IMG/VR virus record: IMGVR_UViG_3300024344_003081
Strand: one strand, 5' to 3'
DNA from: a virus
Lineage: Duplodnaviria > Caudoviricetes
DNA: 64,000 bases
In this document: positions 29,500-53,592 of the stretch, piece after piece
Numbering within the stretch: position 1 is the stretch's first letter
Layout of the letters: each line of letters begins with the position of its first letter
Position numbers and translations under genes: made by a program
Notes under the pieces: generated by a model
Told to the model about the DNA's origin: nothing
What the model saw: only the letters and a program-made list of their open reading frames with translations
The model's database searches: none

Positions 29500-32400
29500 T
29501 ATGTCTATCGAAACAAATTTAATAGCAAATACAAATAGTGCAACAGCCACTACAGTTTATACTTCATCAGGAGAGTCTGCAGTTACAACAATATTTTTTT
29601 GTAATACAGATTCTTCTGCTATTGATGTAACATGTTGGATTGTTCCTAATGGTGACACATTGGGAGATGAACACATGATAATGAAAGAATTAACAATAAA
29701 TGCAACTGATACTTTTGCTTTTGGAAGTGAAAGAATTTTAATGGGAGCAAGCGATACTATTCAAGCAATCGCTGATACAGTAGATAAAGTTTCAGTAGTA
29801 ATTAGCTATACGAGTATTTAATTAATGGCACTATTTCTTAAAGGCGAATACGCAGATTATAGTTTAAAAGAGAAAACAACTTCTGGTTCCGCTGGCTCTG
29901 CTGGATCTGCGGGGAGTGCTGGATCTGCAGGTTCTGCTGGTTCTGCAGGATCGTCTGGATTGACATATGCTTCATCTGGAAGCTCTGGCTCTGCGGGTTC
30001 TGCAGGGAGTGCTGGATCTTCTGGACAAGATGGTAGTTCTTTTGTTCATACTCAATCTTCAGCTTCACTTGTCTGGTTGATAACTCATGGTTTAGGAACT
30101 AGACCAGTAAATATAGAAGTTGTTGATGATAATTATAATGTTATTATACCAGAATCTATTCAATTTATTGATGGAAATAATGTAAAAATAGTATTTACTT
30201 CTTCACAAGCAGGATATGCCGCCATAACTTATGGACAGGGTTCTTCTGGAACTTCTGGTTCTGCAGGAACTTCTGGTTCTTCGGGAATGGGTGGAACTGC
30301 TGGATCATCTGGATCTACTGGTTCTACAGGAAGTGCTGGCTCTGCAGGATCATCTGGCTCTGCGGGAAGTGCAGGAAGTTCTGGGAGTGCTGGTTCTTCT
30401 GGTTCTGCAGGAACTTCTGGAACTACTGGAACTTCTGGAACTGCAGGAACATCTGGACAAGATGGAAATTTTGGTGGTCAATCTTTTGAATATGATTTTG
30501 AAAATACAACATTTACAGGCGCCGCAAGTGATCCAGGTTCTGGTAAACTTGTAGTAGGAATTGATACTGGATCTGCACCTACAGATTTTTCTACAGTTGA
30601 TAGAATTTCTATGAGTGAAGCTGATGTAAATGGTACATCAACTGAAAGTTTTCTAGATCAAGTTGATGGTGCAACATCCGCAATTAAAGGACATGTAAGA
30701 ATATCGAAAAAATTTGATACAAGTACGTATGTAATGTTTACTATCTCGGATGTTACTAATGATTCGGGTTTTCAAGAAATAGAAGTTTCGAAAATAGGAG
30801 GACAAACTGCATTATTTGATGATGATGAAGACATAATTGTTACATTTGCAAGAACTGGTGATGCTGGAACTTCTGGAACATCTGGTTCTTCAGGAAGTGC
30901 TGGTTCTGCAGGATCATCTGGCTCTGCGGGAAGTGCTGGCTCATCTGGATCCGCTGGCTCTGCGGGAAGTGCGGGTAGTGCTGGAAGTGCTGGTTCTGCT
31001 GGAAGTGCTGGCTCTGCAGGAAGTGCTGGTTCTTCGGGGGCAGGAGGAACACACGGAACTGCAGGTAGTGCTGGATCTGCTGGTTCATCTGGATCTGCAG
31101 GAAGTGCTGGCTCTGCGGGTTCTGCAGGAAGTGCTGGATCTTCTGGACAAGATGGCGGATCTTATATTCATACTCAATCTTCAGCTTCACTTGTCTGGTT
31201 TATACCTTATAATTTAAATACTAGGCCTGTAAATATAGAAGTTGTTGATGATAATTATAATGTAATTTATCCAGAATCTATTCAATATATTGATTCAAAT
31301 AATGTAAAAATAGTATTTCCTACTACTCAAGCAGGATATGCGGCGGTAACTTTTGGTGAAGGATCGTCTGGATCATCTGGTTCGTCTGGATTGACTTATG
31401 CTTCATCTGGATCATCTGGTACTTCTGGATCATCTGGGAGTGCTGGTTCTTCAGGAAGTGCTGGATCTGCTGGTTCCGCTGGCTCATCTGGATCCGCTGG
31501 CTCTGCAGGAAGTGCTGGTTCATCTGGCTCTGCAGGAAGTGCTGGAAGTGCTGGAAGTGCAGGAAGTGCTGGCTCTGCAGGAAGTGCTGGCTCTGCTGGT
31601 TCTGCGGGCTCTTCTGGATACACTTATGCTTCATCTGGTTCATCTGGCTCTGCGGGAAGTGCTGGTTCTGCAGGATCATCTGGTTCGTCAGGAACTACTG
31701 GAACTTCTGGAACATCTGGTTCTTCAGGAAGTGCTGGTTCTGCAGGATCATCTGGCTCTGCGGGAAGTGCTGGTTCTGCTGGATCCGCTGGCTCTGCAGG
31801 AAGTGCTGGAAGTGCTGGTTCATCTGGTTCTGCTGGTTCTTCAGGAAGTGCTGGAAGTGCAGGAAGTGCTGGCTCTACAGGAAGTGCTGGATCCGCTGGC
31901 TCTGCAGGGAGTGCTGGATCATCCGGTCGTGATGGTGGATCTTACATTCATACACAATCTACACCTGCAATTGTTTGGTTAATACCTTATAATTTAGGAA
32001 CTCGACCTGTAAATATAGAAGTTGTTGATACTAATTATAATGTTATTGTACCAGAATCCACTCAATATGTTGATTCTAATACTGTAAAAATAATTTTTCC
32101 CATTGCTCAAGCAGGATTTGCCGCAATAACTTTTGGTGAAGGATCGTCTGGAACTTCTGGATCTTCAGGAACTTCTGGATCTTCAGGAACTTCTGGATCG
32201 TCTGGACAAGATGGAAACTTTGGTGGTGCATCTTTTCAATATGTTTTTGAAGATACTTCATTTACAGGATCAGCAAGTGATCCTGGTTCTGGAAGACTTG
32301 AAGTAGGTATTGATACTGGATCTGCACCAACTGATTTCTCTACAGTTAATAGACTTTCTATAAGTGAAACAGATTCAAATGGTGCCGATACTGAAAGTTT

Positions 32401-33850
32401 TCTAGATCAAGTTGATGCATCATCTTCAGCAATTAAAGGTCATATAAGATTGGCCGCACTATTTGATGCTGGTCAATATGTAATGTTTACAGTTGGTGAT
32501 CTTACGAATGCAGGAGATTATCAAGAAATAGAAGTTACAAAGATTGGTGGACAAGACGCATTTTTTGCTGATGATGCTGATATACTTTTTACAGTTGCAA
32601 GAACTGGTGATGTTGGTACCTCAGGAACTTCTGGATCGTCTGGTAGTTCTGGATCTGCTGGCTCTGCGGGTTCTGCTGGAAGTGCTGGATCTGCTGGCTC
32701 TGCAGGAAGTGCTGGATCCGCTGGCTCTGCAGGAAGTTCTGGAAGTGCTGGCTCATCTGGCTCTGCAGGAAGTGCAGGTTCTGCAGGAAGTGCAGGAAGT
32801 GCAGGTACTGCTGGAAGTGCTGGAAGTGCTGGCTCTGCAGGAAGTGCTGGATCATCTGGTCGTGATGGCGGATCTTTTCTTCATACTCAATCTACACCTG
32901 CACTTGTTTGGTTAATAAGTCACGCTTTAAATATTAGACCTCTAAATGTAGAAATTACTGATACTAATTTTAATATAATTATTCCAGAATCAATTCAATT
33001 TATTGATTCTAATACTGTAAAAGTTATTTTTCCCACTACTCAAGCAGGATATGCGGCACTTACTTTTGGTGAAGGATCGTCTGGAACTTCTGGTTCATCT
33101 GGATTGACTTATGCTTCATCTGGTTCTTCTGGAACTGCAGGAACTACTGGCTCTGCGGGTTCATCTGGATCGTCTGGTTCTGCTGGAAGTGCTGGTTCTG
33201 CAGGGAGTGCTGGCTCTGCTGGAAGTGCTGGAAGTGCTGGATCGTCTGGTTCTGCAGGAAGTTCTGGTTCTGCTGGCTCTGCAGGATCGTCTGGTTTAAC
33301 TTATGCTTCATCTGGTTCATCGGGTTCTTCTGGAGAAACTGGAACTGCTGGATCGTCTGGTTCTGCAGGAAGTTCTGGTTCTGCTGGCTCTGCAGGAAGT
33401 GCTGGATCATCTGGATCTGCAGGAAGTACAGGAAGTGCTGGCTCTGCAGGAAGTGCTGGATCGTCTGGTTCTGCAGGAAGTTCTGGTTCTGCAGGAAGTG
33501 CAGGGAGTGCTGGAACATCTGGAACAGATGGAACTGATGGAAATGCTGGCGGTGCTTACATTCATACTCAATCTTCAGCCGCACTTGTCTGGTTGATAAC
33601 TCATGGTTTAAATACTAGACCTTTAAATATCGAAGTTGTTGATGGTAATTATAATGTTATTATACCAGAATCTACTCAATATATTGATTCTAATACTGTA
33701 AAAATAATTTTTCCCACTACTCAAGCAGGATATGCTGGTCTCACACACGGAGAAGGATCTTCTGGAACATCTGGTACTTCTGGACTAACTTATGCTTCAT
33801 CTGGATCTGCAGGAAGTGCTGGATCTGCAGGGACTTCTGGTGTTTCTGGA
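24950..33850 (+). repeat. Degenerate 9-nt coding repeats giving Gly-Ser/Thr-Ala/Ser triplets across both fibre genes
   Basis: Runs of ggatctgct/ggaagtgct/ggttctgca with synonymous variation; bounds approximate. Confidence 0.85.
29501..29821 (+). CDS. Small fibre-associated virion protein
   Basis: 106 aa, TTVYTS...TTIFFCNTD...ERILMGASDTIQA; lies between the two fibre genes. Confidence 0.55.
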   Translation: MSIETNLIANTNSATATTVYTSSGESAVTTIFFCNTDSSAIDVTCWIVPNGDTLGDEHMIMKELTINATDTFAFGSERILMGASDTIQAIADTVDKVSVVISYTSI

Positions 33851-34555
33851 AGTCTTCCAGCAGGAGGTGCTGGTCAAATTCAATATTATGCAACATCATC
33901 TACTCTTGGAGCGTATTCTGGATTTCTTGTAGATGATGTTACAACTCCAACTCAGATAGCCATGAATTTTCCAATTTACTCTTCAAGTGGTGCAACTGGA
34001 TTAGCTAATCTTAAAGTACATGGAACATCTGGACTTGATGGAGCAACTACAGTAGGGGGGACTTTAACTACAGTAGATATTCTTCCTTCTGCAAATAATA
34101 CGAGTGATGTTGGTTCAGCAACAATGGTTTATAATGACATGTATGCAGTTACATTTAACGGAAGAGCAACTTCAGCAAACTGGTCTGACTTGGCCGAGAG
34201 ATATGAATCAGATAAAATATATGAACCAGGAACTGTTTTAGCAGTAGGAGGAACAAAAGAGGTCACATTATATCAAGTTGACATGCCTTATGCTGGTGTT
34301 GTTTCAGATAAACCTGGATTGAGAATGAATGATGGTATGATACAAAGAGAAAATGAATTTATGCTTTTTATTTGTTTGAAAGGAAGAATATTAGTTAAGA
34401 TTGAGGGAGGATGTAATAAAGGAGATTTTATTATAGCTTATAAAGATGGAACTGGAAAAGTTATAACTAAATATGAATATGAACCACACAAACATGATTT
34501 AATTGGAATAGCATTAACTAATAGTAATGGTGATTTTGTAGAAGTAAAAGTATGA
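29825..34555 (+). CDS. Giant collagen-like fibre protein 2 with a C-terminal chaperone-like domain
   Basis: 1576 aa of GSA repeats with five short and two long modules. C-terminal [26 protein letters not shown]...GVVSDKPG...[10 protein letters not shown] is a pattern common at phage fibre ends. Confidence 0.75.
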
Positions 34556-36074: not shown

Positions 36075-36668
36075 ATGGCTGGACCCTTAGCATGTCCTAC
36101 AAATTTGACTAATCTTGCTTCTCAATTAAATGATTTAGTTGAGCAGTCTGATATTAATACAATGAGAACTTCTATCAATGATGAATTGACTAGAAGATCC
36201 ATAACTAATGAAACTTGGGATCCTTATGCCGATCCAATCGCCGCATCAATATTTGATGAAATACAACTCGCAGTTGAATATAATTTAGGAGGAACTACAC
36301 CAACAACAGGTGTACCAATTCAACCAACTGTTTCTGCAGGTGATCTAATTTTAGCATCTCAAATTGAAACGTTAGAATCTAATCTTGATGAATGGAAAGT
36401 TTTATGCGTATGCAATTGTAATTTCTGTCCATGTAATTGTGACTTTTGTCCTTGTAACTGTGATTTCTGCCCATGTAATTGTGACTTTTGTCCTTGTAAC
36501 TGTAATTTTTGTCCGTGTAATTGTAACTTTTGCCCATGTAATTGCAATTTTTGTCCATGTAACTGTAATTTCTGTCCTTGTAACTGTAATTTCTGTCCTT
36601 GCAACTGTAACTTTTGCCCTTGTAATTGTAACTTCTGTCCGTGTAACTGTAACTTCGGTCCAAAATAG
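36075..36668 (+). CDS. Cys-rich heptad-repeat protein, candidate radical SAM substrate/precursor
   Basis: 197 aa with an AGGA RBS; ~110 aa N-terminal region followed by 12 x CNC(N/D)F(C/G)P; immediately upstream of radical SAM genes. Confidence 0.8.
   Translation: MAGPLACPTNLTNLASQLNDLVEQSDINTMRTSINDELTRRSITNETWDPYADPIAASIFDEIQLAVEYNLGGTTPTTGVPIQPTVSAGDLILASQIETLESNLDEWKVLCVCNCNFCPCNCDFCPCNCDFCPCNCDFCPCNCNFCPCNCNFCPCNCNFCPCNCNFCPCNCNFCPCNCNFCPCNCNFCPCNCNFGPK
36411..36662 (+). repeat. 12 tandem 21-nt coding repeats (CNC[N/D]FCP)
   Basis: Units of the form tgy aay tgy ray tty tgy ccn; variation is almost all synonymous, with three N->D units and a final FGP. Confidence 0.95.
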
Positions 36669-36677
36669 AGAAATAAT

Positions 36678-37964
36678 ATGACTCAATCACACAACTTAGA
36701 AACTGTAGCTCCAAATCAAATGTATACACCACCAAGTACAGGGTGGTCTCCTCCACAACAGCAACAGAAGAATAATGGAGGAATGCCTGGCTTTAATCCA
36801 ATGCAGAGTTTTAATTTCGATGTAAACGTAACAAGTGAATGTAATCTTGCTTGTACTTACTGTTCAGAAGGAGAATCTTGTGGTCTTTCTTCTGCTTTTC
36901 AAGAGCCCACAGAAATGACTCCTGTGCAAGTAGTTGAAGCAGTAAGAACCTTAGATTATAACAAATATAAAGATGTAAATGTTTATTGGTGGGGAGGAGA
37001 ACCTTTTGCCAATTTTCATTTTACAAGTACTTGTATGAAATTATTGAAAGATGATAAAAAAGTTAATTTCATGTATTATACAAATGGTACTTATCTGAAA
37101 AAATATAAAAAACAACTTAAAGGTATTAGAGATATGCTTGGTAAGAGAATTGATTATCCTTGGCAAGATAGATTACATATACAAATTTCTTTTGATGGTG
37201 AGCCTATTAATACAAAAGAAAGAAGAACAAAAAAAGGCGAAAGTAAAAAATTATCGGCATCTGTTCTTAAAATATATGATGAGTTGAAAAAAGATGGATT
37301 TTCTGTAGGAATGAAACCTACTATCTCATCACGAAATTTTAAATATCTTTTTGAAGTTTGGAAGTGGCATCATGATCGAGGAGAACATTATGGACCTACT
37401 CCTGATACCCATAGTGTGGATCCAGATAGACCTGATGGCGCAGTTCCAGAAGAAGAATTTGCACAACACATGAAAGATTTAAGAGTGAATTTAATGAAAA
37501 TTGTCAAATATAGCATGGAGAATAAAATAGAATTAGCACAATCTTTTAGATGGTTTAAGAGAGAAAAACAAAATTGTTCAGCAGGAATAAATTATCTATC
37601 ATTGGATCTTGATGGTAAAACTTACCCATGTCATGGTTGTATGTATCGACAAAGGGAAGATCATCATAGAGGAGATATTAAATCTAATACTTTACAAAAA
37701 CTTGTTGATGAAACAACTGCGACATATCAATCATATTTAAATGATTTTAGAACAGATGGTACCTTAGCATGTAATAGTTGTACTGCAGATTTTTGTTTAA
37801 AATGTCCAGCGGGATCTTTTGATGCATCAGATACAAAATATCCAGAAAAAACAGTAGGTGAAAAATGGCAAGATCATACTGCAAATCATCAATTATGTAC
37901 TGTATGGAAAACCTTAGAACCCGTATCTAAAGCATATAGACAATTAACAGGACATCAATTATGA
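36678..37964 (+). CDS. Radical SAM/SPASM-domain protein 1
   Basis: CNLACTYC (CX3CX2C), WGGEPF, and a SPASM-type Cys set CSAG...YPCHGC...CNSC...CLKCPAG...C. Confidence 0.9.
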   Translation: MTQSHNLETVAPNQMYTPPSTGWSPPQQQQKNNGGMPGFNPMQSFNFDVNVTSECNLACTYCSEGESCGLSSAFQEPTEMTPVQVVEAVRTLDYNKYKDVNVYWWGGEPFANFHFTSTCMKLLKDDKKVNFMYYTNGTYLKKYKKQLKGIRDMLGKRIDYPWQDRLHIQISFDGEPINTKERRTKKGESKKLSASVLKIYDELKKDGFSVGMKPTISSRNFKYLFEVWKWHHDRGEHYGPTPDTHSVDPDRPDGAVPEEEFAQHMKDLRVNLMKIVKYSMENKIELAQSFRWFKREKQNCSAGINYLSLDLDGKTYPCHGCMYRQREDHHRGDIKSNTLQKLVDETTATYQSYLNDFRTDGTLACNSCTADFCLKCPAGSFDASDTKYPEKTVGEKWQDHTANHQLCTVWKTLEPVSKAYRQLTGHQL

Positions 37965-38176
37965 TAATAGGTGATCCTAAAAAGTGCCCAATAGCACTTT
38001 CTGATGGATGTACAACTTGTAGTAAAATTTATAGTGGGGAAGATAGAGTGGAATTTGGTAATTGTCAAGAAGAACCTATTAAAATTAATTTTCATATGAA
38101 ATTTAAAGATCAATTAACTGAGCAACAAAGAAAACAATCTGGTAGAGATCCTTGGAAGGAATTACAATATGCCTGA
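37961..38176 (+). CDS. Small Cys-containing hypothetical protein
   Basis: 71 aa with CPIALSDGCTTC...C; overlaps both radical SAM genes. Confidence 0.55.
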   Translation: MIIGDPKKCPIALSDGCTTCSKIYSGEDRVEFGNCQEEPIKINFHMKFKDQLTEQQRKQSGRDPWKELQYA

Positions 38177-39395
38177 ATATCATTTAGAAGTGTCAGTAAC
38201 AGAAAAATGTAATCTTGGTTGTCCATATTGTTATGTTGCAAATCAAGACAAATTTATGACACCTGAAGTGTTTGATAAAGCATGGCCTGAATTTATAAAG
38301 TTAGTAGATAGATCAAAGGCTGATGCTAGAGGAAGATTTCATTTAACATTTTTTGGTGGTGAACCTCTTTTAAATATGCCATTAATTAAACACGCTACAA
38401 AAAAATTAAGAGGAGGCGAACATTCTGATAGACTTCATGCATTATCAATTATTTCAAATATGACATTAATAAATGATGAGATTGCTGATTGGTTAGAAGA
38501 AAATCGAGTAGGAATAAGTTGGAGTTTTGATGGAATATCTTCAAATGAGTCTAGACCTGTAATTAAAAATATGGGAGAAAATAAAGGATATTCAAGTGTG
38601 TTTGAAATGTATAATGAAAAACAGCATTTGATTAGAAGACTGACAAAATATAGTAAGACATGTAAAGTGATGATTTTTCCTGCTAATGTTGATGCAATGA
38701 CAGAAAATTTTGAATTTTTAGTTGATTTTGGAATTCCTTGTCCAGATTTTTCTATTGTAAGAGATGATATTTGGTCTATTGATGATTTACAACATTTTAG
38801 AAGAGAGGTTAGAAGATTAGCAGATAAACAAATAGAATATCTTTCTAAAGGAATTTTAGCAGTTAATGGAATGTTTAATTTACCATTACAAGATATGTTA
38901 TTGGGTATTACTAAAAACAAGAGACCATTTGGATGTTTTGCAGGAGTGAGCGGTTCAGTTATGTCAGTAGAAGGAGAATTTTATCCATGTGCTAGATTTG
39001 GATCTAAAAAAGTTTTACCTATGAAAGGAGATGAATATAATTTTTCATATTTTCAACATATTTTTAATCCTAAAACATATAATAAATGTAAGGGGTGTGA
39101 TCTATATAAAGTATGTAATGCAGGTTGTACATATTCGCAGATAAGAAATGGAAATACACCTGTAGATTCTATTTGTGAATTATTTCATATGTACTATGAT
39201 GAAGCAATAAGAATTGTTGAAGAGTGTAAAGATTTTCCAACATTTCAAGATTATATTGGAAAATTATTTAAGGGTCGAGGAGACTTTTATACTCCTTTTG
39301 AAATAGAGGAAAAGAAAGATTTATTTTCTATGCTAGAAGTTTCACAGATGAAACATAGTGAACATCAATCATTTGTGGAATCATTACCAGCATGA
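38169..39395 (+). CDS. Radical SAM/SPASM-domain protein 2
   Basis: CNLGCPYC, FFGGEPLLN, and SPASM CFAG...FYPC...CKGCDLYKVCNAGC...C. Confidence 0.92.
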   Translation: MPEYHLEVSVTEKCNLGCPYCYVANQDKFMTPEVFDKAWPEFIKLVDRSKADARGRFHLTFFGGEPLLNMPLIKHATKKLRGGEHSDRLHALSIISNMTLINDEIADWLEENRVGISWSFDGISSNESRPVIKNMGENKGYSSVFEMYNEKQHLIRRLTKYSKTCKVMIFPANVDAMTENFEFLVDFGIPCPDFSIVRDDIWSIDDLQHFRREVRRLADKQIEYLSKGILAVNGMFNLPLQDMLLGITKNKRPFGCFAGVSGSVMSVEGEFYPCARFGSKKVLPMKGDEYNFSYFQHIFNPKTYNKCKGCDLYKVCNAGCTYSQIRNGNTPVDSICELFHMYYDEAIRIVEECKDFPTFQDYIGKLFKGRGDFYTPFEIEEKKDLFSMLEVSQMKHSEHQSFVESLPA

Positions 39396-40060
39396 TATTT
39401 GATAAACCTGTAATAGATCCAAGAGTTAACCAAGGAGATGGACCACCAAAATATATTCCTGGTCAATTATTAGATAAAAAAGATTTAACAGTATATCAAC
39501 ATAAAGATACTACAATGGTTGTTTTAGATTATGATCAAAAAATTAATGTTGATGTGATGAATGAAGTTTTATATAGAACTATAGAGGGTGGAGCAATAAG
39601 AAAAAATGAATATGTAATTATAGTATCTAAAAAACAATTAAATAGAAAAATGTTTAGAAATGTAATAGATAAAATTCTATATTCACAAGATTTGAGATAT
39701 GATTATATGTCAAGTCTTCCAAAGAATTTACATAATAATGTAATAGATTTTAAAGATACTAAAGAATTAACGGGGGACTTAAATAAATCTACATACGAAG
39801 AAGAAGGCACTTTAAGTTGGGAATTACTTAGTCCGGTTGAACAAGGTTGTATAATATTTGAACAATTTTATGGTGATGATCCTGAAATTGTCGCAGGTAA
39901 AAATATAAGTGCTGAAGAATGGATATCTGCAAATAGAAATGTTTGGCATCTTGTAGATAGAGCAACAGATGAACAGAGAAAAGAGTGGTTAGAAAAGTTC
40001 TATAGATATAAAAAAGTGTATGATACATTTCCAACCGCACCACTTATTACGGAGCCATAA
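39392..40060 (+). CDS. Hypothetical protein in the radical SAM operon
   Basis: 222 aa ORF with an ATGA overlap. Confidence 0.65.
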   Translation: MIFDKPVIDPRVNQGDGPPKYIPGQLLDKKDLTVYQHKDTTMVVLDYDQKINVDVMNEVLYRTIEGGAIRKNEYVIIVSKKQLNRKMFRNVIDKILYSQDLRYDYMSSLPKNLHNNVIDFKDTKELTGDLNKSTYEEEGTLSWELLSPVEQGCIIFEQFYGDDPEIVAGKNISAEEWISANRNVWHLVDRATDEQRKEWLEKFYRYKKVYDTFPTAPLITEP

Positions 40061-40323
40061 TGAATAAAGATGAACGAAAAGAAATTTCAGAAAAGGCGGC
40101 CCGTGAAGGTGATATCAATGCAATAATAAAACAATTGCAAGATGAAGAAACTCCTGATAAAGTTCAAGCTAGAGATAAAAATTTACTCAAGAGAAGTTTC
40201 GAATATGAATCCGGAGAAGAGGGAATAGGTCATGAGCCATTATTTAAATATAATTTAGATTTTGCAGGATTAATGAGAAATATGTCCTACATAATTAAAA
40301 AATATAAGGAAAGAAAAAAATGA
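40060..40323 (+). CDS. Hypothetical protein in the radical SAM operon
   Basis: 87 aa ORF with TAATG and ATGA overlaps. Confidence 0.6.
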   Translation: MNKDERKEISEKAAREGDINAIIKQLQDEETPDKVQARDKNLLKRSFEYESGEEGIGHEPLFKYNLDFAGLMRNMSYIIKKYKERKK

Positions 40324-41696
40324 GATCCCGTTCAGATAAAATTTGTCCAGAATTTAGTAAATTGGATGATATTATTGATTATGAAAGAGGATTGAATGAT
40401 GGAGAGAGTATATGCAAACCATATACAACCCATAAGATTCATGAATTGGCAACTATTCAGGAACAGAGTCTTGCAAAAAATCCAGATTCAAAAATTAGAG
40501 AAATTTCGAATAGAAAATTAAATGAAGTAGTAAAAGAAAATTTTGAATCTGTTTCAACAGATAGACATCGACATCGTATTGAAGATTTAAAACAGGGAAA
40601 AATAAAAACTGAAGAAGCAACTGTTAGTGAAATTTATGATAGACATTTTACACATGGAGAAAATGAAAAAACAAGAGTTGCACATGGTGGTGCAATTCAT
40701 TTATTTTATATGACAAGTCAATGTAATTTAGATTGTAATTATTGCTATCAGCATTTAGAAGGAAGACCTAAACATTTACCCGAACCTCCTTTAATAGCCA
40801 ATCTTATCGATAATATTATGGAATCAGATAGACCTGATGAACAAACTCTTTATTGTATTTTTGGTGGTGAACCTTTGATGGAATGGGAGAATTGTAGATT
40901 TTTAATGGATTATGCTTATAAATCAAAACATAATTGTCATTTTAATATAACATCAAATGGTATATTATTAAGTAAGCCTGCTTTTTTTAAAAAAGTGACC
41001 ACATATTTAGAAGAGCATCCTGAAATAAAACAAAGAGTTTCTTTTGATATTAGTTTTGATGGAGTTGGAAGTCAAGATAGAGTTTATTATTCTGGGAAAG
41101 ATTCAACTCTTGATGTATTAAAATGTTTTGGTAATATTATGGAATACAATAAAGACAAATCCCGTGAAGATCAAATACGGTGGAGATGTAGATATACTAT
41201 TCATAGATCAAATGTAATGTGTTTTGCAAAAGATATGTTTCATATAGCAACGACATATGGACCAGATAGAGTTGTAACATCTTTAGATAATAAGTGTGCA
41301 GAAGGCGAAACGCCAGAAGATGAAGCAAAAATTAAATGGTTATTAAAAGAACAAATTGATTGGCTTAGAGAAAAATGGAGAAGAAATTTAATAAATTATC
41401 CTGTGTGTAGTTTATTTTGTGATATGTGTAATTCATGTGGAGAAAAGAAAGATCATAGATTTTATTATAGTCAACAAGGTCTTGCTAGAATTCAAAATGT
41501 GAATGTAAGAGTTGGAGAAGAGTTCTTTGATTTTCCAGATGCAGATCCCGAAATAGAAAGAGAATTACCTAAAGCTGGGTTACCAAAAACAATGTTTGAT
41601 CGTTTAGGTATAGTTGATACCTTTGGTCAAGGATCTGGAACAGAACATTTACAAGAAACAAAATTTGCGGAAGACGGAAAAAGTCTTTCTTGTTAG
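40320..41696 (+). CDS. Radical SAM protein 3 (N-terminal extension, atypical C-terminal Cys cluster)
   Basis: CNLDCNYC, IFGGEPL, TSNG and SFDISFDG motifs; C-terminal CSLFCDMCNSC. Confidence 0.88.
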   Translation: MRSRSDKICPEFSKLDDIIDYERGLNDGESICKPYTTHKIHELATIQEQSLAKNPDSKIREISNRKLNEVVKENFESVSTDRHRHRIEDLKQGKIKTEEATVSEIYDRHFTHGENEKTRVAHGGAIHLFYMTSQCNLDCNYCYQHLEGRPKHLPEPPLIANLIDNIMESDRPDEQTLYCIFGGEPLMEWENCRFLMDYAYKSKHNCHFNITSNGILLSKPAFFKKVTTYLEEHPEIKQRVSFDISFDGVGSQDRVYYSGKDSTLDVLKCFGNIMEYNKDKSREDQIRWRCRYTIHRSNVMCFAKDMFHIATTYGPDRVVTSLDNKCAEGETPEDEAKIKWLLKEQIDWLREKWRRNLINYPVCSLFCDMCNSCGEKKDHRFYYSQQGLARIQNVNVRVGEEFFDFPDADPEIERELPKAGLPKTMFDRLGIVDTFGQGSGTEHLQETKFAEDGKSLSC

Positions 41697-41704
41697 GAGA
41701 TATT

Positions 41705-42436
41705 ATGGCTGAAGAACATGAATTGATTAAAAAACACGCTAATGAAGCAATACAAGCATTAGTTCCATTATTAGATAATGAAAAAACACGCCATATAGGT
41801 CATGTATTATTAAAAGCAATTGACTTGGGTTTAGGTATGTTGTCAGCAGATGCTAAAGGAGAGTCTAGTGGAGCGAACAATCAAATAAGAGTAAGTGGGG
41901 CTTCTCCTCCAGGAACCGTTCCTCAAAATTTTCAGAAAGATATAGAGCAAGAAAATAAGGTACAGGGATTAGTAGATGAAACATTAAAGGAATTAGAAAT
42001 GATGGATAATCATGAATCTAATCCTGTAACTACAGACAAAGATGGTAATGAAATAGAATATGTAAAAGGAATGCTTTGTAATTGTCAATTTGCTTCTGAA
42101 TTTCACAAATACTGTGATAATCAATGTAAAGAGACTTTGATTAAAGCAGAAGGAAATCCAAAAGAATATATTAAATTTATTGATAAAGAAAGAAAAGAAC
42201 AAGATACTAAATCTCTTGATGAGGCAATGGATGAGGTTACAGGCTTTATTGATACAGAATTGGGTATTGGAGTTTCTCCTAGACCAAAACCACAACAATC
42301 ACAGCAACAAGCTCCTCAAAATGATGTACAGCAAGAAACTCCTTTAAATGAAGAAAACAAGCAATTTGCGTTAGATCCTAGTCAACCTGTTATTATGCCT
42401 GGTGAACCAACTGGACTTGAAAATGACAGTAGTTAA
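41705..42436 (+). CDS. Hypothetical acidic protein with a Cys motif
   Basis: AGGAGA RBS before the ATG at 41705; contains CNCQF...YCDNQC and a Q/P-rich tail. Confidence 0.6.
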   Translation: MAEEHELIKKHANEAIQALVPLLDNEKTRHIGHVLLKAIDLGLGMLSADAKGESSGANNQIRVSGASPPGTVPQNFQKDIEQENKVQGLVDETLKELEMMDNHESNPVTTDKDGNEIEYVKGMLCNCQFASEFHKYCDNQCKETLIKAEGNPKEYIKFIDKERKEQDTKSLDEAMDEVTGFIDTELGIGVSPRPKPQQSQQQAPQNDVQQETPLNEENKQFALDPSQPVIMPGEPTGLENDSS

Positions 42437-42677: not shown

Positions 42678-43657
42678 TGGCATTCAATGATATACCTGGA
42701 AATTCAACATGGAAAACTGTAAAATGTGATAACGAAATTGTTTCACTTGCTAATGGAAGTGAGCCTGATAAATTTGATCAAATTTTAGATTTATTAAAAT
42801 TAAATAAACAATATTATTTAGAAAATGGAACTACAGAAAACGAATGGCTTGATCGAGTTTCGGGCTTTGCTTGTCAGAGACCATATGTATCAACAACGAA
42901 TGAAGAACGATCTAAAGGAGAAGAATTGGGATTTTATGAAGATTTAGGTAGCCCTGATTGGGAGGCTTCTCAGAATGATTCCAAGATTACTGACCTTGCT
43001 AATGGAAGCGAATCCGATAAATATGATCAAATTTTAAATATATTAAAAACAAATAAAGAATATTATTTAAAAACTGCAGTAACCGAAGATCAATGGACTG
43101 ATAGAGTTTTATATTTTGCATATCAAAGAGGATCTGATGTTAGTGGTGATCCATTTATTGTAGATGATGCACCAGTATTACCTCTTGACTATATGGATTC
43201 TAAAGATATATCATGGTTTAATAGTGATATGAGATGGGAAATCGCAATGAAAATTTTAATTAATGCAATTGATGAAAAAGGAAAAACTTGGTATACAACT
43301 GAAACTGCTCAAACTCCTGATGGTAATATAGCTGGACCAAATGATTCTCAAATTTCTAGTTTAAGTTGGTTGCCATCAAATTGTATATCATTACATAATA
43401 AACTTATAAGTTCTACTTATTCTAAGTTCATATATATTATCAAGTTAAGTAATGTTCATTTGAGATATTCTGAACCATCAAAAATATTTGATGAAATTGA
43501 TACCGAAAACACTACTGCCATTTCAAATCTCAATACATCTCAATTGACAGATTTATTAGCATATGTTAGAGAAGCATATGTAAGTCGTCCAGACGATAAA
43601 ACAAATGAAAATTTTGAAGCCGCATGTGAAATGCTAGAGTTTGATATGGCACAATAA
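42674..43657 (+). CDS. Hypothetical protein with an internal duplication
   Basis: 327 aa; LANGSEPDKFDQIL...WLDRV recurs as LANGSESDKYDQIL...WTDRV. Confidence 0.65.
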   Translation: MMAFNDIPGNSTWKTVKCDNEIVSLANGSEPDKFDQILDLLKLNKQYYLENGTTENEWLDRVSGFACQRPYVSTTNEERSKGEELGFYEDLGSPDWEASQNDSKITDLANGSESDKYDQILNILKTNKEYYLKTAVTEDQWTDRVLYFAYQRGSDVSGDPFIVDDAPVLPLDYMDSKDISWFNSDMRWEIAMKILINAIDEKGKTWYTTETAQTPDGNIAGPNDSQISSLSWLPSNCISLHNKLISSTYSKFIYIIKLSNVHLRYSEPSKIFDEIDTENTTAISNLNTSQLTDLLAYVREAYVSRPDDKTNENFEAACEMLEFDMAQ

Positions 43658-43673
43658 TATATTGAGGAATATA

Positions 43674-44057
43674 ATGGTTACTAGAGAAGAAATTGAACAA
43701 AAGTGTAAAGACGCTTTTGATGAAGCAGGCATGGGCCTTTCCTTCCCAGAAATTACACCAGAAAAAAATATAGCACAGGATCTTGATATTGATTCAATTC
43801 ATATTTTAGAGACTATGATTCTTATTGAAGATGAATTTGATATTATGTTAGATGCTGAAGAATTTCAAAAAGCAACTACTGTAAGGGATCTTTATGATTT
43901 AGTTGAAGTAAAAATAAAACAAGGAGCTAAAATTAAAGAACTTGAAAAAGAAGCAGGCGATGATGAAAAAGCTAGAAACAGATTATTAGAACAACTAAAG
44001 AAAGATAAAGAAGCAGGTACAGGGGTTTATGAAATGAGCCAATATGAGAAAAAGTAA
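43674..44057 (+). CDS. acpP: Acyl carrier protein with a charged C-terminal extension
   Basis: DLDIDSIHILETMILIEDEFDI...TVRDLYDLV, the phosphopantetheine-attachment DSI motif plus helix II pattern; GAGGA RBS before the ATG at 43674. Confidence 0.85.
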   Translation: MVTREEIEQKCKDAFDEAGMGLSFPEITPEKNIAQDLDIDSIHILETMILIEDEFDIMLDAEEFQKATTVRDLYDLVEVKIKQGAKIKELEKEAGDDEKARNRLLEQLKKDKEAGTGVYEMSQYEKK

Positions 44058-45168
44058 AATATCAGGACTTGGTGACTATGGTGTATTTATAGATGATGTA
44101 TCATTAGCAGAAATGTCTGATAATGATTGGATGCAATTAGGAAAAGAACATCTTACAGATTTAGTTACAATTATTAGAAATGTAGATATTCAACCATCTG
44201 AATTTGAACGTAAGATGTATTTATGGGGCGCCCCATATGTTATAGATGGATATCGTATTAAGAAAAAATATGAAAAAAAATTAGGAATATCTAATTTATA
44301 TACATTATTCAAACGTGATCTTTTAGAAGAAGAAGATCGCCGACATGCAGAAAATTTAACGTGGTATATTGCGGCAGGGGATAATTTTACAGAAGAAGAG
44401 GTTCCTGCTGATTCTCATTTAATTCGTATAACTGGTATGAAAGAGAATGGGAGAAGTATGGGAATGTTTGCTGAAGGAGAATTGGGCTGGCATTCTAATG
44501 AAGCGGGTTCGCTTTGCTTTACTCCTGGTGTTGCACTCATGGGCATAAAAGGAATGGTGGGGTCTTCAACAGGATTTGTTTGTTCTGCAACTTGGTACGA
44601 AAAGCAAAGAGATTCTTTTAAAAGAGAATTAGATGATATGACTGTTATTTTTAAATATCAAAATTATGAAACTGCTCCTGAATTAAATAAAGATCAAGAT
44701 GATTCATTTCGTTGGAATCAAACGTTTGAACCGATTGAACTTCCACTGGTTATTACAACCCCTGGAGGAATAAAAGGTCTGCATTATTCTCCTGGTACAG
44801 TAGAGAGAACTAAATTTTTAGATGATTTAGACAAAGAATTATTTGTAGATGAATATACTTATCATCACAAGTATGAAAGAAATAATGATATATTACTTTT
44901 TGATAATTGTATTACTTTGCATAATAGACAAGGATCCCCCATTGAACGAGTGGCTTATCGAGAACCATGTGATTATGCTCAGTTAATTCCTGATGGATAT
45001 AATTATTATTCCCAAGAGCCTTATAAAACACAATTTGAAGAAATGAGAAAAGACATACAGGAAACTCTTGGTGTTAAATCTATAGCTGAACAGAATATGG
45101 TTTTTAAAAAATATATTCAACCAAAATTCCCCAAAAGAGAATGGAAAAACAATGATCTAGTGAGGTAA
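44044..45168 (+). CDS. TauD/TfdA-family Fe(II)/2-oxoglutarate dioxygenase
   Basis: GMFAEGELGWHSN...ALMG...TGF...W...HPLV-like IELPLV, and ILLFDNCITLHNR (distal His, Arg). Confidence 0.75.
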   Translation: MRKSKISGLGDYGVFIDDVSLAEMSDNDWMQLGKEHLTDLVTIIRNVDIQPSEFERKMYLWGAPYVIDGYRIKKKYEKKLGISNLYTLFKRDLLEEEDRRHAENLTWYIAAGDNFTEEEVPADSHLIRITGMKENGRSMGMFAEGELGWHSNEAGSLCFTPGVALMGIKGMVGSSTGFVCSATWYEKQRDSFKRELDDMTVIFKYQNYETAPELNKDQDDSFRWNQTFEPIELPLVITTPGGIKGLHYSPGTVERTKFLDDLDKELFVDEYTYHHKYERNNDILLFDNCITLHNRQGSPIERVAYREPCDYAQLIPDGYNYYSQEPYKTQFEEMRKDIQETLGVKSIAEQNMVFKKYIQPKFPKREWKNNDLVR

Positions 45169-45169
45169 A

Positions 45170-45787
45170 ATGAAAAAAATGATGATAACAGGTGTGAGTT
45201 CTGGTTTAGGAAAAGCACTTTTTGAATATTATGATGGAAAATATATTCAAAAATATAAAGATGTAATAGAAGTTGAAGGTCACAGTAGAAGATATAATCA
45301 ACATGATATTCAAGACATTAAAGATTGGTTTGATCCTGAAGCAGATATTTTTATCAATAATGCATATAGTGATCTGAGATGGTGGACTCAAACGAATGCA
45401 TTATTATATTCTTTTTCAGTTTGGGCAGATAAACCCGATAAACATATTGTGTCTATAAGTTCAATTGCACAGGAAAAAGATACTGATGGATGGCCTATTG
45501 GTCATAGTAGATATTCAGTAGGAAAAATTTCTCTTGATAAAATGAATTTAGACTGTCATGAAAAAGTAGCAAAAAAACATGGATGTAAAGTTTCTAATTT
45601 AAGACTTGGTTGGGTAGAAACACCTAGAACAACAAGAATAAGTACTGTAGTAAGTCGTTTATATGATGTTGATCCTGTTAAGCAAACAACTGGAACAATG
45701 TTGAGTACAGATGAATGTATAGATGCTATAGACTTTATGTTAAATCATAGTGGAAGAGTAAGAGAAATGACATTGGAGGCAAAATGA
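45170..45787 (+). CDS. Short-chain dehydrogenase/reductase
   Basis: ITGVSSGLG (TGxxxGxG), FINNA, SISS and catalytic YSVGK (YxxxK). Confidence 0.85.
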   Translation: MKKMMITGVSSGLGKALFEYYDGKYIQKYKDVIEVEGHSRRYNQHDIQDIKDWFDPEADIFINNAYSDLRWWTQTNALLYSFSVWADKPDKHIVSISSIAQEKDTDGWPIGHSRYSVGKISLDKMNLDCHEKVAKKHGCKVSNLRLGWVETPRTTRISTVVSRLYDVDPVKQTTGTMLSTDECIDAIDFMLNHSGRVREMTLEAK

Positions 45788-46812
45788 GCAAGGTGTTACA
45801 AATAGCAACTAGACATCCTGAAAATGAACATCATAATAAAGATTTTGCCGCAGAATTAAAATTATGGTGGGAAGAAAAAGGATATTCGGGTAGAGTTTTT
45901 GATAGATATCTTCCATTAACGGGTGTTGAAACTCGATATGCTTGTTATAATCGAGAGGAGATGAGAGAAAAATCTCAAACGTTTACTCAAAAAAATAAAA
46001 CATTTAATGAAGTTGCTATAAAATTATCATTAGAATGTGTAAAGGAATTGGAATTTAATCCACAAGATGTTTGTATGTTAACATCAACTACTATGACAGG
46101 TGTTGGTATTCCTACGATTCCCCATACAATATTAAAAGAATTTAATTTTCCAGAATCAATGATTAAAATACCCATGTTTGGTCTAGCATGTAATGGAGGC
46201 ACTCATATTTTAGGAATAGCAAATGAATATTTAAAAGGTAATCCAGACAAGTTAGTTATAGCAATGACTAACGATTTATGTTCAATGAATTTGTGTCCTG
46301 AACATGCTACATTAACAACTGTTTTTGGATCTGTAATATTTGGTGATGGAATTAGTGCTATTTTAATTGCAGGAGATAATTATAATGATGCACCAGGATG
46401 GAAATTACATAAACATGTGTCATATGTTTTACCAGATACAGAAGATTATATTACTCTTCAAGGATTAAGTGAAGGATTATTATATCATGTAGAATCAACT
46501 AAATTGCAAGAAATACCAAAAGCATCTGCGGCATTTAATGATAAAATTAAAGAATTTATTGAAGGTCATACTATTAATAATTGGATATGTCATCCAGGAG
46601 GAAAAATTGTTTTAGAAAATACTGTAAAGGGGCTTAATTTACCTGAAGGTGCTTTGGATTCATCTTTTGAATTATTTCGAAATTTTGGAAATATGTCTGC
46701 AACTTCAGTAATAAAAACTTTACAGCATGATTTTGATAAAGATGGCAAAACAGTTATGATTTCTTATGGGCCAGGTTTTCAGGTTGATGTTATATTATTA
46801 GAAAAAATATGA
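45784..46812 (+). CDS. Type III polyketide synthase (chalcone/stilbene synthase family)
   Basis: Triad motifs GLACNGG (Cys), WICHPGG (His) and FGNMS (Asn); also IFGDG, LTSTTMTG...P and C-terminal SYGPGF; 342 aa. Confidence 0.88.
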   Translation: MSKVLQIATRHPENEHHNKDFAAELKLWWEEKGYSGRVFDRYLPLTGVETRYACYNREEMREKSQTFTQKNKTFNEVAIKLSLECVKELEFNPQDVCMLTSTTMTGVGIPTIPHTILKEFNFPESMIKIPMFGLACNGGTHILGIANEYLKGNPDKLVIAMTNDLCSMNLCPEHATLTTVFGSVIFGDGISAILIAGDNYNDAPGWKLHKHVSYVLPDTEDYITLQGLSEGLLYHVESTKLQEIPKASAAFNDKIKEFIEGHTINNWICHPGGKIVLENTVKGLNLPEGALDSSFELFRNFGNMSATSVIKTLQHDFDKDGKTVMISYGPGFQVDVILLEKI

Positions 46813-47237
46813 TTTGGGGAAAAGATAAACACGATATTCGTAATAGAATTTTGTCGATGACAATAGAAAATGGCTTGGGTATAGATTTACAAACAATAGA
46901 ACCCATTCAAAAAATATATGATAAATGGGGTGATAAATTTGTTAATAAAATATTAACAGATATAGAAAAGAAAAATGCACCAAATCCCATAACTGCAAAA
47001 TATTTAACAAAATGTTGGTGTGTTAAAGAAGCATTTTCAAAAGCAATTGCATCTCCATATTTGAGACTCGATGTTAGTTATACACATTTAAAAGCTAGAG
47101 GAGCAAGATTTCCTGTTGTTCATTGTGTTATGGAACCCAAAGATTGGAATTTGAAACGACAAGATATTAGACTTTCTTTATCTGATACAAAAGATTATGT
47201 GGTCGCAATAGTTATTACAGGAGTTAATCCTTTGTGA
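46809..47237 (+). CDS. acpS: Holo-ACP synthase (AcpS-type 4'-phosphopantetheinyl transferase)
   Basis: GLGIDLQTI, WCVKEAFSKA and RLSLSDTKDYVVAIV correspond to the AcpS motifs GIDI, AKEAxxKA and SISH. Confidence 0.82.
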   Translation: MIWGKDKHDIRNRILSMTIENGLGIDLQTIEPIQKIYDKWGDKFVNKILTDIEKKNAPNPITAKYLTKCWCVKEAFSKAIASPYLRLDVSYTHLKARGARFPVVHCVMEPKDWNLKRQDIRLSLSDTKDYVVAIVITGVNPL

Positions 47238-47959
47238 TAAAAACCTTAGACTATACAATCCCTTCTGAATGGAATAATAAAAATATTATTTCTAGTTTTA
47301 TTGATTCGGGATTTTTAGTAATTAATCATCCCTTCATAGATATGAAAGAAGGTTTACTTTCTTTTAAAGAAAAACTTAAAATACAATTAAACGAATTAGA
47401 AGAAACTGAAGAGGGGTATAGAAAAATTATATTAAAAAATTGTGATAATATTAAACAAAGATTTTTAAAAGTGGGATGTGAAATTTTATATGTTATTGAA
47501 GAATTTTTAAATGTTCCTCCAAATTCTATTGCAATGAAACATGCTGATTCTGATAATGCTTTGAGATTGGTTAAATATTATAAAGATCAGAAAGGATCAA
47601 TAAGAGTAGGAGAACATTGTGATTTTGGTACTTTAACACTTGTTCATGTTTGTGATCCTGTAGAAGAATATGAAATATTTTATGATGATAAATGGAGAAC
47701 AATAAATCATCCTAGTGATGATTTTTTGATTGTGAATATAGGTGATTTTATGCAGATTTGGTCAGATAATAAATTAAAATCTACTCCGCATAGAATAACG
47801 AATAAAACAAAAAAAGAAAGACACAGTATGATTATGTTTATGGATGCTGGTAATCATACTATTAAAGGAATTGATCATGCTACTTGGAATAAAAAAAGAA
47901 TACAAATGGCTCATACAGGAGTAACATATTATCATGACAAAGGTATCGTACAAATATAA
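47234..47959 (+). CDS. IPNS-like Fe(II)/2-oxoglutarate oxygenase
   Basis: LRLVKY, GEHCDFGTLTL (HxD), IVNIGDFMQIWS, STPHRI and RHS (RxS); GTGA overlap with acpS. Confidence 0.85.
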   Translation: MIKTLDYTIPSEWNNKNIISSFIDSGFLVINHPFIDMKEGLLSFKEKLKIQLNELEETEEGYRKIILKNCDNIKQRFLKVGCEILYVIEEFLNVPPNSIAMKHADSDNALRLVKYYKDQKGSIRVGEHCDFGTLTLVHVCDPVEEYEIFYDDKWRTINHPSDDFLIVNIGDFMQIWSDNKLKSTPHRITNKTKKERHSMIMFMDAGNHTIKGIDHATWNKKRIQMAHTGVTYYHDKGIVQI

Positions 47960-51082: not shown

Positions 51083-51083
51083 C

Positions 51084-53468: not shown

Positions 53469-53519
53469 GCTCGATATATATTAACACCAGAGAATGGAAA
53501 CGAAAGTTCCGCTTTGGAC

Positions 53520-53592
53520 AGGGGTGTAGTTTAATTAAAACGGCCAACAGGGTGTTGGGAAGTTGTGAGTGTAAATCTCGCCACCCCGACCA
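53520..53592 (+). tRNA. Non-canonical tRNA-Pro(GGG)-like RNA with encoded CCA
   Basis: Manual cloverleaf: acceptor (A)GGGGTG/CACCCC(G)-A-CCA, D stem GTTT/AAAC with a 5-nt loop, anticodon arm CCAA-CAGGGTG-TTGG, T stem GTGAG/CTCGC with loop TGTAAAT; 73 nt. Confidence 0.6.

Follow-up and report, generated by a model that had tools for sequence, protein, structure and literature searches.

A Cys-heptad phage protein encoded next to three radical-SAM enzymes: a possible enzymatically cross-linked fibre rod

The heptad gene and its operon

The window analysed here is a stretch of 64,000 nucleotides of phage DNA (IMG/VR record IMGVR_UViG_3300024344_003081), best read as belonging to a marine T4-like myovirus, with the 197-aa product of the heptad gene (Table 1) as one of its structural proteins, of a fibre-like kind. 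Tandem Repeats Finder detects a 21-nt period in 11.7 copies at 36417-36661, and direct reading of residues 111-197 gives CVC, 11 full CNC(N/D)FCP units, a terminal CNCNFGP unit and a K. These last 87 residues hold 36 of the 37 Cys of the protein, in agreement with an earlier note on this DNA, which had described an ORF of this length with a Cys-heptad C-terminus. The unit can be re-registered as (C-x)3 plus an aromatic residue. Across the 11 full units, variation touches every one of the seven third-codon positions but a single first position (Asn/Asp); their pairwise codon differences are 167 synonymous against 24 non-synonymous, and all 10 of the in-repeat differences listed for an independent marine metagenome (36584-36626) fall at third codon positions. 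The DNA variation is thus mostly synonymous, as had been claimed, and the repeat is under purifying selection at the peptide level. In the family logo, which comprises 267 heptads, the unit reads C-[NDQ]-C-[ND, 266/267]-[FYH, 263/267]-C-[PT], the three Cys being the only invariant residues. A degenerate DNA pattern of three heptads yields 21 matches among 2.9 million viral contigs and 3 among 32 million genome contigs, a rarity that rules out the repeat as a chance feature.

Table 1. Features of the heptad/radical-SAM region (positions in the window)
Feature	Position	Strand	Remarks
Collagen-repeat fibre protein (context)	29825..34555	+	1576 aa
Heptad protein gene	36075-36668	+	ORF, 197 aa
N-terminal domain of heptad protein	36075..36404	+	residues 1-110; three predicted helices
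Cys-repeat rod of heptad protein	36405..36668	+	CVC, 11 x CNC(N/D)FCP, CNCNFGPK, stop
Radical-SAM enzyme, type A	36678..37964	+	428 aa; Pfam Radical_SAM 1.5e-13; CX3CX2C at residue 55
Small overlapping ORF	37961..38176	+	71 aa; 4 Cys
Radical-SAM enzyme, type B	38169..39395	+	408 aa; CX3CX2C at residue 14; canonical seven-Cys SPASM
Accessory gene F222	39392..40060	+	222 aa; conserved; marine T4-like group only
Small conserved accessory protein F87	40060..40323	+	87 aa
Radical-SAM enzyme, type C	40320..41696	+	458 aa; CX3CX2C at residue 135
Gene F248	41690..42436	+	248 aa; conserved; overlaps end of type C gene; system membership uncertain

In the AF2 model, the N-terminal domain forms helices (pLDDT about 80) at residues 24-40, 57-71 and 94-109, the third of which continues directly into the Cys repeats; the repeats themselves have no confident fold. 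Residues E37, R40 and R41 of this domain, in an INxExxRR motif, are invariant in the family alignment. A profile search collects 537 clusters at 50% identity, and its matches cover the N-terminal domain as well as the repeats. The family of the Campylobacter phage protein CPt10_1891 (phrog_26958) also matches by HMM (E = 1.7e-19), but the match is limited to residues 88-158, where the third helix and the heptads lie.

The next gene begins 9 nt past the stop codon of the heptad ORF, and the three radical-SAM genes downstream belong to a translationally coupled operon. All three products contain the Pfam Radical_SAM domain and meet the PF04055 cut-off of 29.5 bits (A 51.7, B 51.0, C 31.1), and their CX3CX2C motifs are invariant in the respective alignments. 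In type A, the alignment reveals seven invariant C-terminal Cys, the SPASM motif taking the variant form CX2CX4CX2C, and the Pfam SPASM score is 21.4 bits against a cut-off of 21.5. Type B, the most conserved component of the system, conforms to the canonical pattern CX9-15GX4C ... CX2CX5CX3C ... C, with G269-X4-C274 and invariant C256, C274, C307, C310, C316, C320 and C336. The SPASM motif is absent from type C, which has in the alignment a single invariant CX3CX2CX2C motif (C363, C367, C370, C373). From these motifs, two SPASM auxiliary-cluster sites, for 4Fe-4S clusters, are predicted in each of A and B, and one extra cluster site in C. The earlier note had described two radical-SAM/SPASM genes from 9 nt downstream, followed by small ORFs and a third radical-SAM gene; the seven-Cys motifs of SPASM type are confined to the first two enzymes.

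The best NCBIfam match of all three enzymes is the PapB family NF047865, although none reaches its 340-bit cut-off (B 142.5, A 77.5, C 53.5 bits). In the case of type B, this match (1.8e-41) is followed by QhpD (1.5e-27), also below cut-off. The SCIFF maturase is likewise among the best matches to the enzymes of the window, and others include the cyclophane-forming YhhB, XyeB and GrrM families and the anaerobic sulfatase maturase; none of the three belongs to TIGR04115 either (B 58.7, A 29.6, C 42.3 bits against a 350-bit cut-off). Among PDB entries, CteB (5wgg) is the best match (6.7e-13 for type B) and anSME the second. No RRE domain, the RiPP recognition element with which maturases of the PapB/CteB type bind a leader peptide, is present in A, B or C. 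Type B lacks one at its N-terminus because its CX3CX2C motif already lies at residue 14, and it aligns to CteB only from residue 102; in most A and C orthologues the motif starts at residues 11-45, and the N-terminal extension of type C is confined to this phage group.

Between and after the enzyme genes lie several smaller ones. The 71-aa ORF is conserved only in the closest relative and so may not be a real component. F222, whose family is present in 7 loci, has no Pfam, NCBIfam or PHROG match. F87, with a core motif HLFxYxxDFxxFxxNMxxIIK, sits 5' of type C both here and in distant loci, and its AF2 model is all-helical, of low confidence and unlike an RRE. The F248 family is present in 5 loci.

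Linkage of heptad and radical-SAM genes across phages

A scan of IMG/VR with the heptad DNA pattern returned 21 loci, 18 of the records being non-Campylobacter. Fourteen of these 18 hold between 2 and 11 PF04055 genes, the nearest within 2.5 kb, and the heptad gene of the other four is no more than 1.7 kb away from the end of its contig; in one of those four lineages, a 161-kb contig has radical-SAM genes 3.2 kb downstream. The earlier note would have been refuted had such repeat proteins commonly occurred without radical-SAM neighbours, and this is not what the scan finds. With so many enzymes per locus, some must have other targets. The linkage also holds in the opposite direction, where the earlier note had proposed a search for Cys-repeat ORFs beside radical-SAM genes: of 62 distinct loci retrieved with type B, 44 contain a same-strand (CxCxCxx)n ORF at a distance of at most 7 kb (median offset 2.7 kb), and 9 have another Cys-repeat ORF instead. 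The A/B(/C) triad is orthologous across loci and recurs beside the heptad gene, with type A adjoining it in most loci, including that of CPt10_1931.

In 50,697 phage records, the B-type homologues fall into two groups: Campylobacter phages, of which every one examined is a Firehammervirus, and uncultured human-gut 'Bacteriophage sp./Phass-1' contigs, one of which was examined and is SCIFF-like. The Campylobacter phages, whose enzymes are 34% identical to type B, are the only isolated phages found with the heptad protein, and 10 of the 11 named phages appear in both the heptad and the type B lists. However, their heptad and type B genes are 140 kb apart, and one 18.5-kb contig (L056) encodes an 832-aa heptad protein without any radical-SAM gene; both observations count against a role of the enzymes in modifying the protein. 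Overall, the pairing recurs in hundreds of unrelated phages, from the oceans to Campylobacter hosts, and this recurrence suggests that phages enzymatically staple a protein of their own particle.

Place in the virion and possible chemistry

The heptad/radical-SAM module adjoins and travels with a fibre gene. The collagen-repeat fibre protein has a C-terminal domain of about 130 aa with the motif ADLAE(K/R)Y, and 15 loci combine this domain with the module; a distant homologue has a weak match to the Peptidase_G2 autoproteolytic domain. Homologues of the heptad protein have an S74 tail-fibre chaperone domain at their end or fused to them, with the S74 motif directly after the repeats; the fusion is seen in P0016, and a split form, with PF13884 in the next gene (E 2.6e-9), in four loci (L044, L046, L047, L010). 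The heptad protein of the window has neither an SDxRxK auto-cleavage motif nor an S74 domain (PF13884) and ends in CNCNFGPK. In Campylobacter phage IBB_35, the product of gene 3-9, a 60.3-kDa homologue, was detected in purified virions by ESI-MS/MS with only 2.6% coverage (PMC3322345 Table S2). The S74 homologues, the fibre-gene linkage and this detection lend support to the earlier suggestion that the product is a virion protein carrying modifications and not a secreted peptide, without demonstrating the modification itself. That the heptad protein of the window is present in its virion is an inference, which we regard as somewhat more likely than not.

The explanation towards which we lean, by no great weight and with the chemistry untested, is that of a fibre-like virion protein with a (C-x)3-aromatic rod that enzymes resembling PapB, CteB and QhpD cross-link. 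The protein would consist of a short helical N-terminal domain and a rod of twelve (Cys-x)3-aromatic units, and the three operon-encoded enzymes would modify this rod post-translationally. In the most likely reaction, hydrogen would be abstracted from a side-chain or backbone carbon and a Cys sulfur then joined to it, a thioether chemistry as in ranthipeptides and sactipeptides. The likeliest acceptor would be heptad position 4, which is almost always Asn/Asp, although acceptor residues have not been shown, and the product may be a covalently stapled, redox-insensitive rod that could be made in the reducing cytoplasm. We are reasonably confident in the inference that the heptad protein is the radical-SAM substrate, for which there is no chemical evidence and on which a predicted complex of type B with the heptad protein speaks neither for nor against; that the bond is a thioether, inferred without product data, we regard as an even call.

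A modification of the same protein by the same enzymes but through another chemistry, such as an aromatic-to-Cbeta cyclophane at F/Y/H (triceptide type), a Cys-to-formylglycine conversion (anSME type) or epimerisation, is unlikely, but there is some case for it: conservation of the aromatic at position 5 (263/267) equals that of the Asn/Asp, the cyclophane-forming and sulfatase-maturase families are among the NCBIfam matches and anSME is the second-best structure, and the presence of three different enzymes points to more than one reaction. The strongest matches of all three, by family and by structure, are nevertheless thioether formers (PapB, QhpD, SCIFF/CteB), and only the Cys are invariant in the repeat. 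It is also conceivable, at a low probability, that the rod is an unmodified trimeric beta-helix with inward-facing Cys that coordinate metal ions, much as His-x-His sites hold iron in the long tail fibres of T4, or that pair into disulfides once released, the enzymes acting on sugars, lipids, nucleotides or other fibre proteins. The (C-x)3 alternation would suit a beta-strand with one Cys-lined face, metal ions alone could stabilise a Cys-lined trimer, and related Cys-tailed proteins (L118-L127) bear G-H-x-H motifs; some clusters hold sugar and acyl-carrier or ketosynthase genes, and up to 11 radical-SAM genes occur per locus. This leaves unexplained why an orthologous A/B/C triad and the heptad gene track each other across phages that have diverged widely, and why the enzymes fall in the peptide/protein-cross-linking SPASM clade and not to sugar or nucleotide radical-SAM families.

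To a RiPP precursor, in which the 110-aa N-terminal region would be a leader and the modified Cys-rich core would be cleaved off and diffuse to act on the host or competitors, we give little credence. Its layout recalls the SCIFF, Cys-every-fifth and CXXX-repeat systems with PapB-like maturases, but the operon contains no protease or exporter by Pfam, NCBIfam or PHROG, the enzymes have no RRE, homologues of 350-830 aa carry the repeats internally, a tail-fibre chaperone domain can follow them, and one homologue is found in virions. Finally, the Cys-rich protein might serve the enzymes, either by storing Fe-S or sulfur or by acting as a scaffold in a phage loading many cluster-dependent enzymes, since radical-SAM-rich marine T4-like genomes also encode Fe-S assembly genes (PMC5332604); the strict heptad period, the conserved Asn/Asp and aromatic residues, the S74 fusions and the virion detection fit this so poorly that it is hardly tenable.

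Relation to known systems

To our knowledge, radical-SAM/SPASM cross-linking is known only from small bacterial peptides and one enzyme subunit (QhpC), and we found no paper describing a phage Cys-heptad protein/radical-SAM system. The present analysis ties this enzyme clade in phages to a fibre-like protein, at least one homologue of which is in the virion; should the modification be real, this would be the first virus structural protein to be enzymatically modified by radical-SAM enzymes. That Campylobacter and marine T4-like phages carry radical-SAM genes in excess has long been noted and remains unexplained; real cross-links would account for it, and would represent a new class of covalent stabilisation for virus particles as well as a repetitive, genetically encoded scaffold with three new enzymes for peptide stapling. 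Since Firehammervirus phages can be grown in culture and the operon is short, the idea lends itself to direct testing. More tentatively, and short of an even chance in our estimate, dedicated phage radical-SAM enzymes may install thioether (or related) ladders in a trimeric fibre of their own particle, with (CxCxCx-aromatic)n, (CT)n and (CXXX)n as variants of one widespread, undescribed way of fibre hardening.

PapB and CteB form bonds from the sulfur of Cys to a side-chain carbon (Asp Cbeta, Thr Cgamma). In PapA/PapB (freyrasin) and CteA/CteB (SCIFF; PDB 5WGG), as in the window, SPASM enzymes have a repetitive Cys-rich precursor encoded next door. The window enzymes differ in scoring far under the PapB cut-off (142 vs 340 bits), in lacking an RRE and in being of three types instead of one, and the presumed phage substrate is a fibre-like protein of 170-830 aa built on a CxCxCx-aromatic heptad, whereas the known precursors are peptides of some 45 aa that carry CX3D or have six Cys scattered along them. 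QhpD, the second-best NCBIfam match of type B and also a SPASM enzyme, installs several Cys-to-Asp/Glu thioethers in a subunit that is retained in a larger assembly, the quinohemoprotein amine dehydrogenase, whose gamma subunit QhpC is a bacterial periplasmic protein that has three links but lacks repeats and any phage context. The absence of an RRE is shared with the protein-modifying QhpD and anSME. The CXXX-repeat radical-SAM target system (TIGR04115 maturase; PF27846 target), which has been defined in silico only, likewise places a Cys-repeat tail beside a PapB-like SPASM maturase, and phage versions with a fibre-like N-terminal domain appeared in the reverse search (L129-L133); in the window the Cys spacing is 2-2-3, not every fourth residue, and there are three enzymes, not one or two.

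Likenesses also exist among phage structural proteins. In many homologues, the heptad rod occupies the place that the trimeric beta-helix or stalk takes in S74-folded trimeric fibres and spikes (endosialidase, T5 pb1), directly before the SDxRxK cleavage motif, and its periodic, inward-facing ligand residues recall the His-x-His iron ladder of T4 gp37. Unlike those fibres, the rod is Cys-based and linked to radical-SAM enzymes, and the window protein is without the chaperone motif. The chainmail of the HK97 capsid (Lys-Asn isopeptide) is likewise a stabilising covalent cross-link in a phage structural protein, but one that is autocatalytic, belongs to the capsid and involves neither dedicated enzymes nor sulfur chemistry.

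Sequence and family of the heptad protein

The heptad protein (197 aa) carries its Cys repeat at residues 111-197, where CVC is followed by 11 CNC(N/D)FCP units and a final CNCNFGPK; at the DNA level the repeat has a period of 21 nt and 11.7 copies (Tandem Repeats Finder). The units share only 82% DNA identity among themselves, with all seven third-codon positions varying across units and, among the first positions, only the one that exchanges Asn and Asp. Pairwise codon differences among units amount to 167 synonymous versus 24 non-synonymous, and the ten repeat differences listed between the window and a second metagenome all fall at third codon positions. Selection therefore acts on the peptide, and the proposal of the earlier note, that variation in the repeat is mostly synonymous and the peptide selected, is borne out.

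In the AF2 monomer only three N-terminal helices are confidently modeled, the repeats reaching a pLDDT of ~42. When this model was compared with BFVD, Foldseek gave no relatives at E <= 0.001, and no family was found for the protein in Pfam or NCBIfam. The only match in a PDB sequence search, the heptads of the RNA polymerase II CTD, was rejected as a periodicity artefact. Among isolated phages, the sole blastn match was a 21-bp repeat inside the Campylobacter phage gene CPt10_1891/CPT_0180, whose 535-aa product shows a helix and then six C(D/N)CNYCT units; tblastn with the heptad protein found nothing in these phages, an effect of low-complexity masking of the repeats. Protein searches recovered both close marine and distant relatives, and a profile search over 1.84 billion representatives returned 537 clusters at E <= 1e-3 and 301 at E <= 1e-10. 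The layout common to all relatives is a domain with an invariant E..RR, a helix, and the heptads, which follow the motif C-[NDQ]-C-[ND]-[FYH]-C-[PT] over 267 units. Octad variants (CTCNCNY[AS]) show the true unit to be (C-x)3 and then an aromatic, an alternation as expected for a short β-strand with one face lined by Cys. Some phages hold three or four paralogues in tandem, with differing N-terminal domains and nearly identical CTCNCNYCT tails.

Linkage to three radical SAM genes

The earlier note had placed radical SAM (rSAM) genes after the heptad ORF. This arrangement stands: the next gene begins after a gap of 9 nt, and Pfam Radical_SAM is matched in three genes, the triad of types A, B, and C. 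Overlaps of 1-8 nt join every consecutive gene pair from 36678 to 42436, making this a translationally coupled operon.

Features of the window and of the compared loci (L-numbers), with coordinates
Feature	Position	Strand	Description
Collagen-repeat protein	24460-29499	+	1679 aa (PF01391)
Collagen-repeat protein	29825-34555	+	1576 aa (PF01391)
Heptad gene	36075-36668	+	
rSAM type A	36678-37964	+	CX3CX2C and seven invariant C-terminal Cys; CX2CX4CX2C variant of SPASM (orthologue alignment)
rSAM type B	38169-39395	+	Canonical seven-Cys SPASM pattern (orthologue alignment)
Small protein F87	40060-40323		87 aa
rSAM type C	40320-41696	+	Single invariant CX3CX2CX2C motif only (orthologue alignment)
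Lipid- or polyketide-like genes	43641-54419	+	
Tandem heptad paralogues	L073:12693-15257; L067:9501-11558		
Split S74	L044:9492-10366; L046:9412-10387; L047:9559-10463; L010:10297-11202		
Second Firehammervirus Cys-repeat family	L053:14838-15047 (CPt10_0311); L107:17842-18213; L108:17834-19271		
Other Cys tails, examples	L118:6126-6701; L129:11331-12338		

The association was followed in both directions. A degenerate three-heptad DNA pattern, scanned over IMG/VR, matched 21 loci; PF04055 genes (2-11 per record) were present in 14 of the 18 non-Campylobacter heptad records, the nearest never more than 2.5 kb from the heptad gene. The heptad gene of the other four lies <1.7 kb from a contig end, and for one of these lineages a 161-kb contig, L054, shows rSAM genes 3.2 kb downstream of it. 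One 18.5-kb contig encodes an 832-aa heptad protein and no rSAM gene. Conversely, with the type-B alignment as query, IMG/VR yielded 77 loci, 62 of them distinct, with a same-strand (CxCxCxx)n ORF in 44 (median offset 2.7 kb), a different Cys-dense ORF in nine, and no Cys-repeat ORF in the remaining nine, which include four truncated contigs and three Campylobacter phages that have the heptad gene at another place in their genomes. L054 itself (PAAV01000055.1), with about 16 rSAM genes besides the heptad gene, comes from a T4-like phage, so that its binning as a Chloroflexota MAG is probably an error.

When each neighboring rSAM was compared by BLAST with the three of the window, they sorted cleanly into A, B, and C. 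Types A and B adjoin the heptad gene in nearly every locus and type C in most, and in divergent loci type C is preceded by a small protein, as it is by F87 in the window. In Campylobacter, CPt10_1931 is of type A and lies 2.3 kb downstream of the heptad gene, and CPt10_0221 is of type B (34% identity); CPt10_0161 was rejected as a type-C orthologue. Across 50,697 phage records, B-type homologues occur only in Campylobacter phages, those opened being Firehammervirus, and in uncultured human-gut contigs. The heptad repeat also matches 10 of 11 named Campylobacter phages, and the eleventh, CP220, has it in its IMG/VR copy. Two of the gut 'Bacteriophage sp.' contigs that have rSAM-B-like genes were opened, and the heptad protein was seen in neither: L051 showed no Cys-rich ORF, and in L052 the rSAM has an ordinary 48-aa peptide of the SCIFF type upstream.

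Other Cys-repeat proteins were found along the way. Firehammervirus phages have a second family beside the portal gene (69-284 aa, up to 76 Cys), built of C-x-x triplets such as CKNCINCSNC, which could be further rSAM targets. At L118-L127 and L129-L133, one PapB-like rSAM gene is paired with a fibre-like protein bearing another Cys tail, either three G-H-x-H motifs and then (CT)n, or CXXX repeats (CQLACQTACQSAC); these pairs reach no NCBIfam cut-off.

Genomic and virion context

The window comes from a marine T4-like myovirus. Baseplate wedge, tail sheath, portal, large terminase, scaffold, and major head protein were recognized with PHROG profiles, and the major capsid protein shares 64% identity with its counterpart in Pelagibacter phage HTVC008M. 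All long ORFs are on the + strand and GC is ~30%; marine plankton metagenomes of at least eight studies contain DNA nearly identical to that of the window. A copy of the T4 late-promoter motif TATAAATA is present at 35535, its window-wide count not being above chance, and contigs of 150-220 nt from two marine metatranscriptome runs cover rSAM-A, too little to claim transcription.

Both giant collagen-repeat proteins are encoded between the portal and heptad genes. The C-terminus of the 1576-aa protein is a conserved ADLAE(K/R)Y domain of ~130 aa, and fibre genes ending in this domain accompany the heptad/rSAM module in 15 loci; one homologue weakly matches the Peptidase_G2 autoproteolytic domain. 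Many heptad-protein homologues themselves end in NYSDxRLKxxIxY, with which the S74 intramolecular chaperone of tail fibres and spikes begins, and one of them, P0016, has the entire S74 domain fused. In four loci the heptad protein stops after the first 12 S74 residues (SDxRLKxxIxYI) and the remainder is the next gene, with its own start codon and Shine-Dalgarno (PF13884, E = 2.6e-9). In these loci S74 is naturally split over two genes, and the chaperone may therefore act in trans. In addition, the 38 proteins that were detected in purified particles of Campylobacter phage IBB_35 include a heptad homologue, the product of gene 3-9, at 2.6% sequence coverage (PMC3322345 Table S2).

Directly downstream of the module, genes for an acyl-carrier protein (ACP), a TauD-like dioxygenase, a type III PKS/KAS-III-like enzyme, a 2OG-Fe(II) oxygenase, and at least five tandem fatty-acid-desaturase-like paralogues (PF00487, E about 1e-15 each) resemble a lipid or polyketide tailoring cluster carried by the phage. 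Three ORFs of similar size beside the desaturase-like array gave no match. ACP, ketosynthase, and hotdog-like genes also lie between the rSAM genes of a distant heptad/rSAM locus (L042).

Possible modification of the repeat rod

As the linkage is two-way, orthologous, and maintained across very divergent phages, the heptad protein and the rSAM triad are very likely to be functionally coupled. The best NCBIfam model for A, B, and C is the PapB ranthipeptide maturase, followed by QhpD, nif11 and SCIFF maturases, and CcpM, all scores being far below the family cut-offs; the solved structures closest to rSAM-B are CteB (5WGG) and anaerobic sulfatase maturase. This clade points to Cys-to-carbon cross-linking. 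None of the three enzymes has an N-terminal RRE domain, which fits a protein rather than a leader-peptide substrate, and F87 is modeled by AF2 as helical at low confidence, without an RRE-like fold. A structural product is favoured by the fibre context.

A serious rival is that the rod remains unmodified and forms a metal-laddered β-helix, a reading that leaves the linkage to the enzymes unexplained. Complex prediction gave no verdict: a model of rSAM-B and the heptad protein, with SAM and three 4Fe-4S clusters included, reached a score of 0.02 where the mark was 0.32, which speaks neither for nor against. If the rod is cross-linked, the identity of the joined residues can only be guessed. The near-invariant Asn/Asp at heptad position 4 would be the natural acceptor, in analogy to PapB, QhpD, and NxxC-type enzymes; the aromatic residue is conserved equally, which leaves room for cyclophane chemistry instead.

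We found no description of a system combining the heptad protein and the rSAM triad in the literature. Timms et al. noted the intragenic 21-bp repeat and the 11-12 unexplained rSAM genes without connecting them (PMC2853527), and Nishimura et al. described up to 12 rSAM genes in marine T4-like genomes (PMC5332604).
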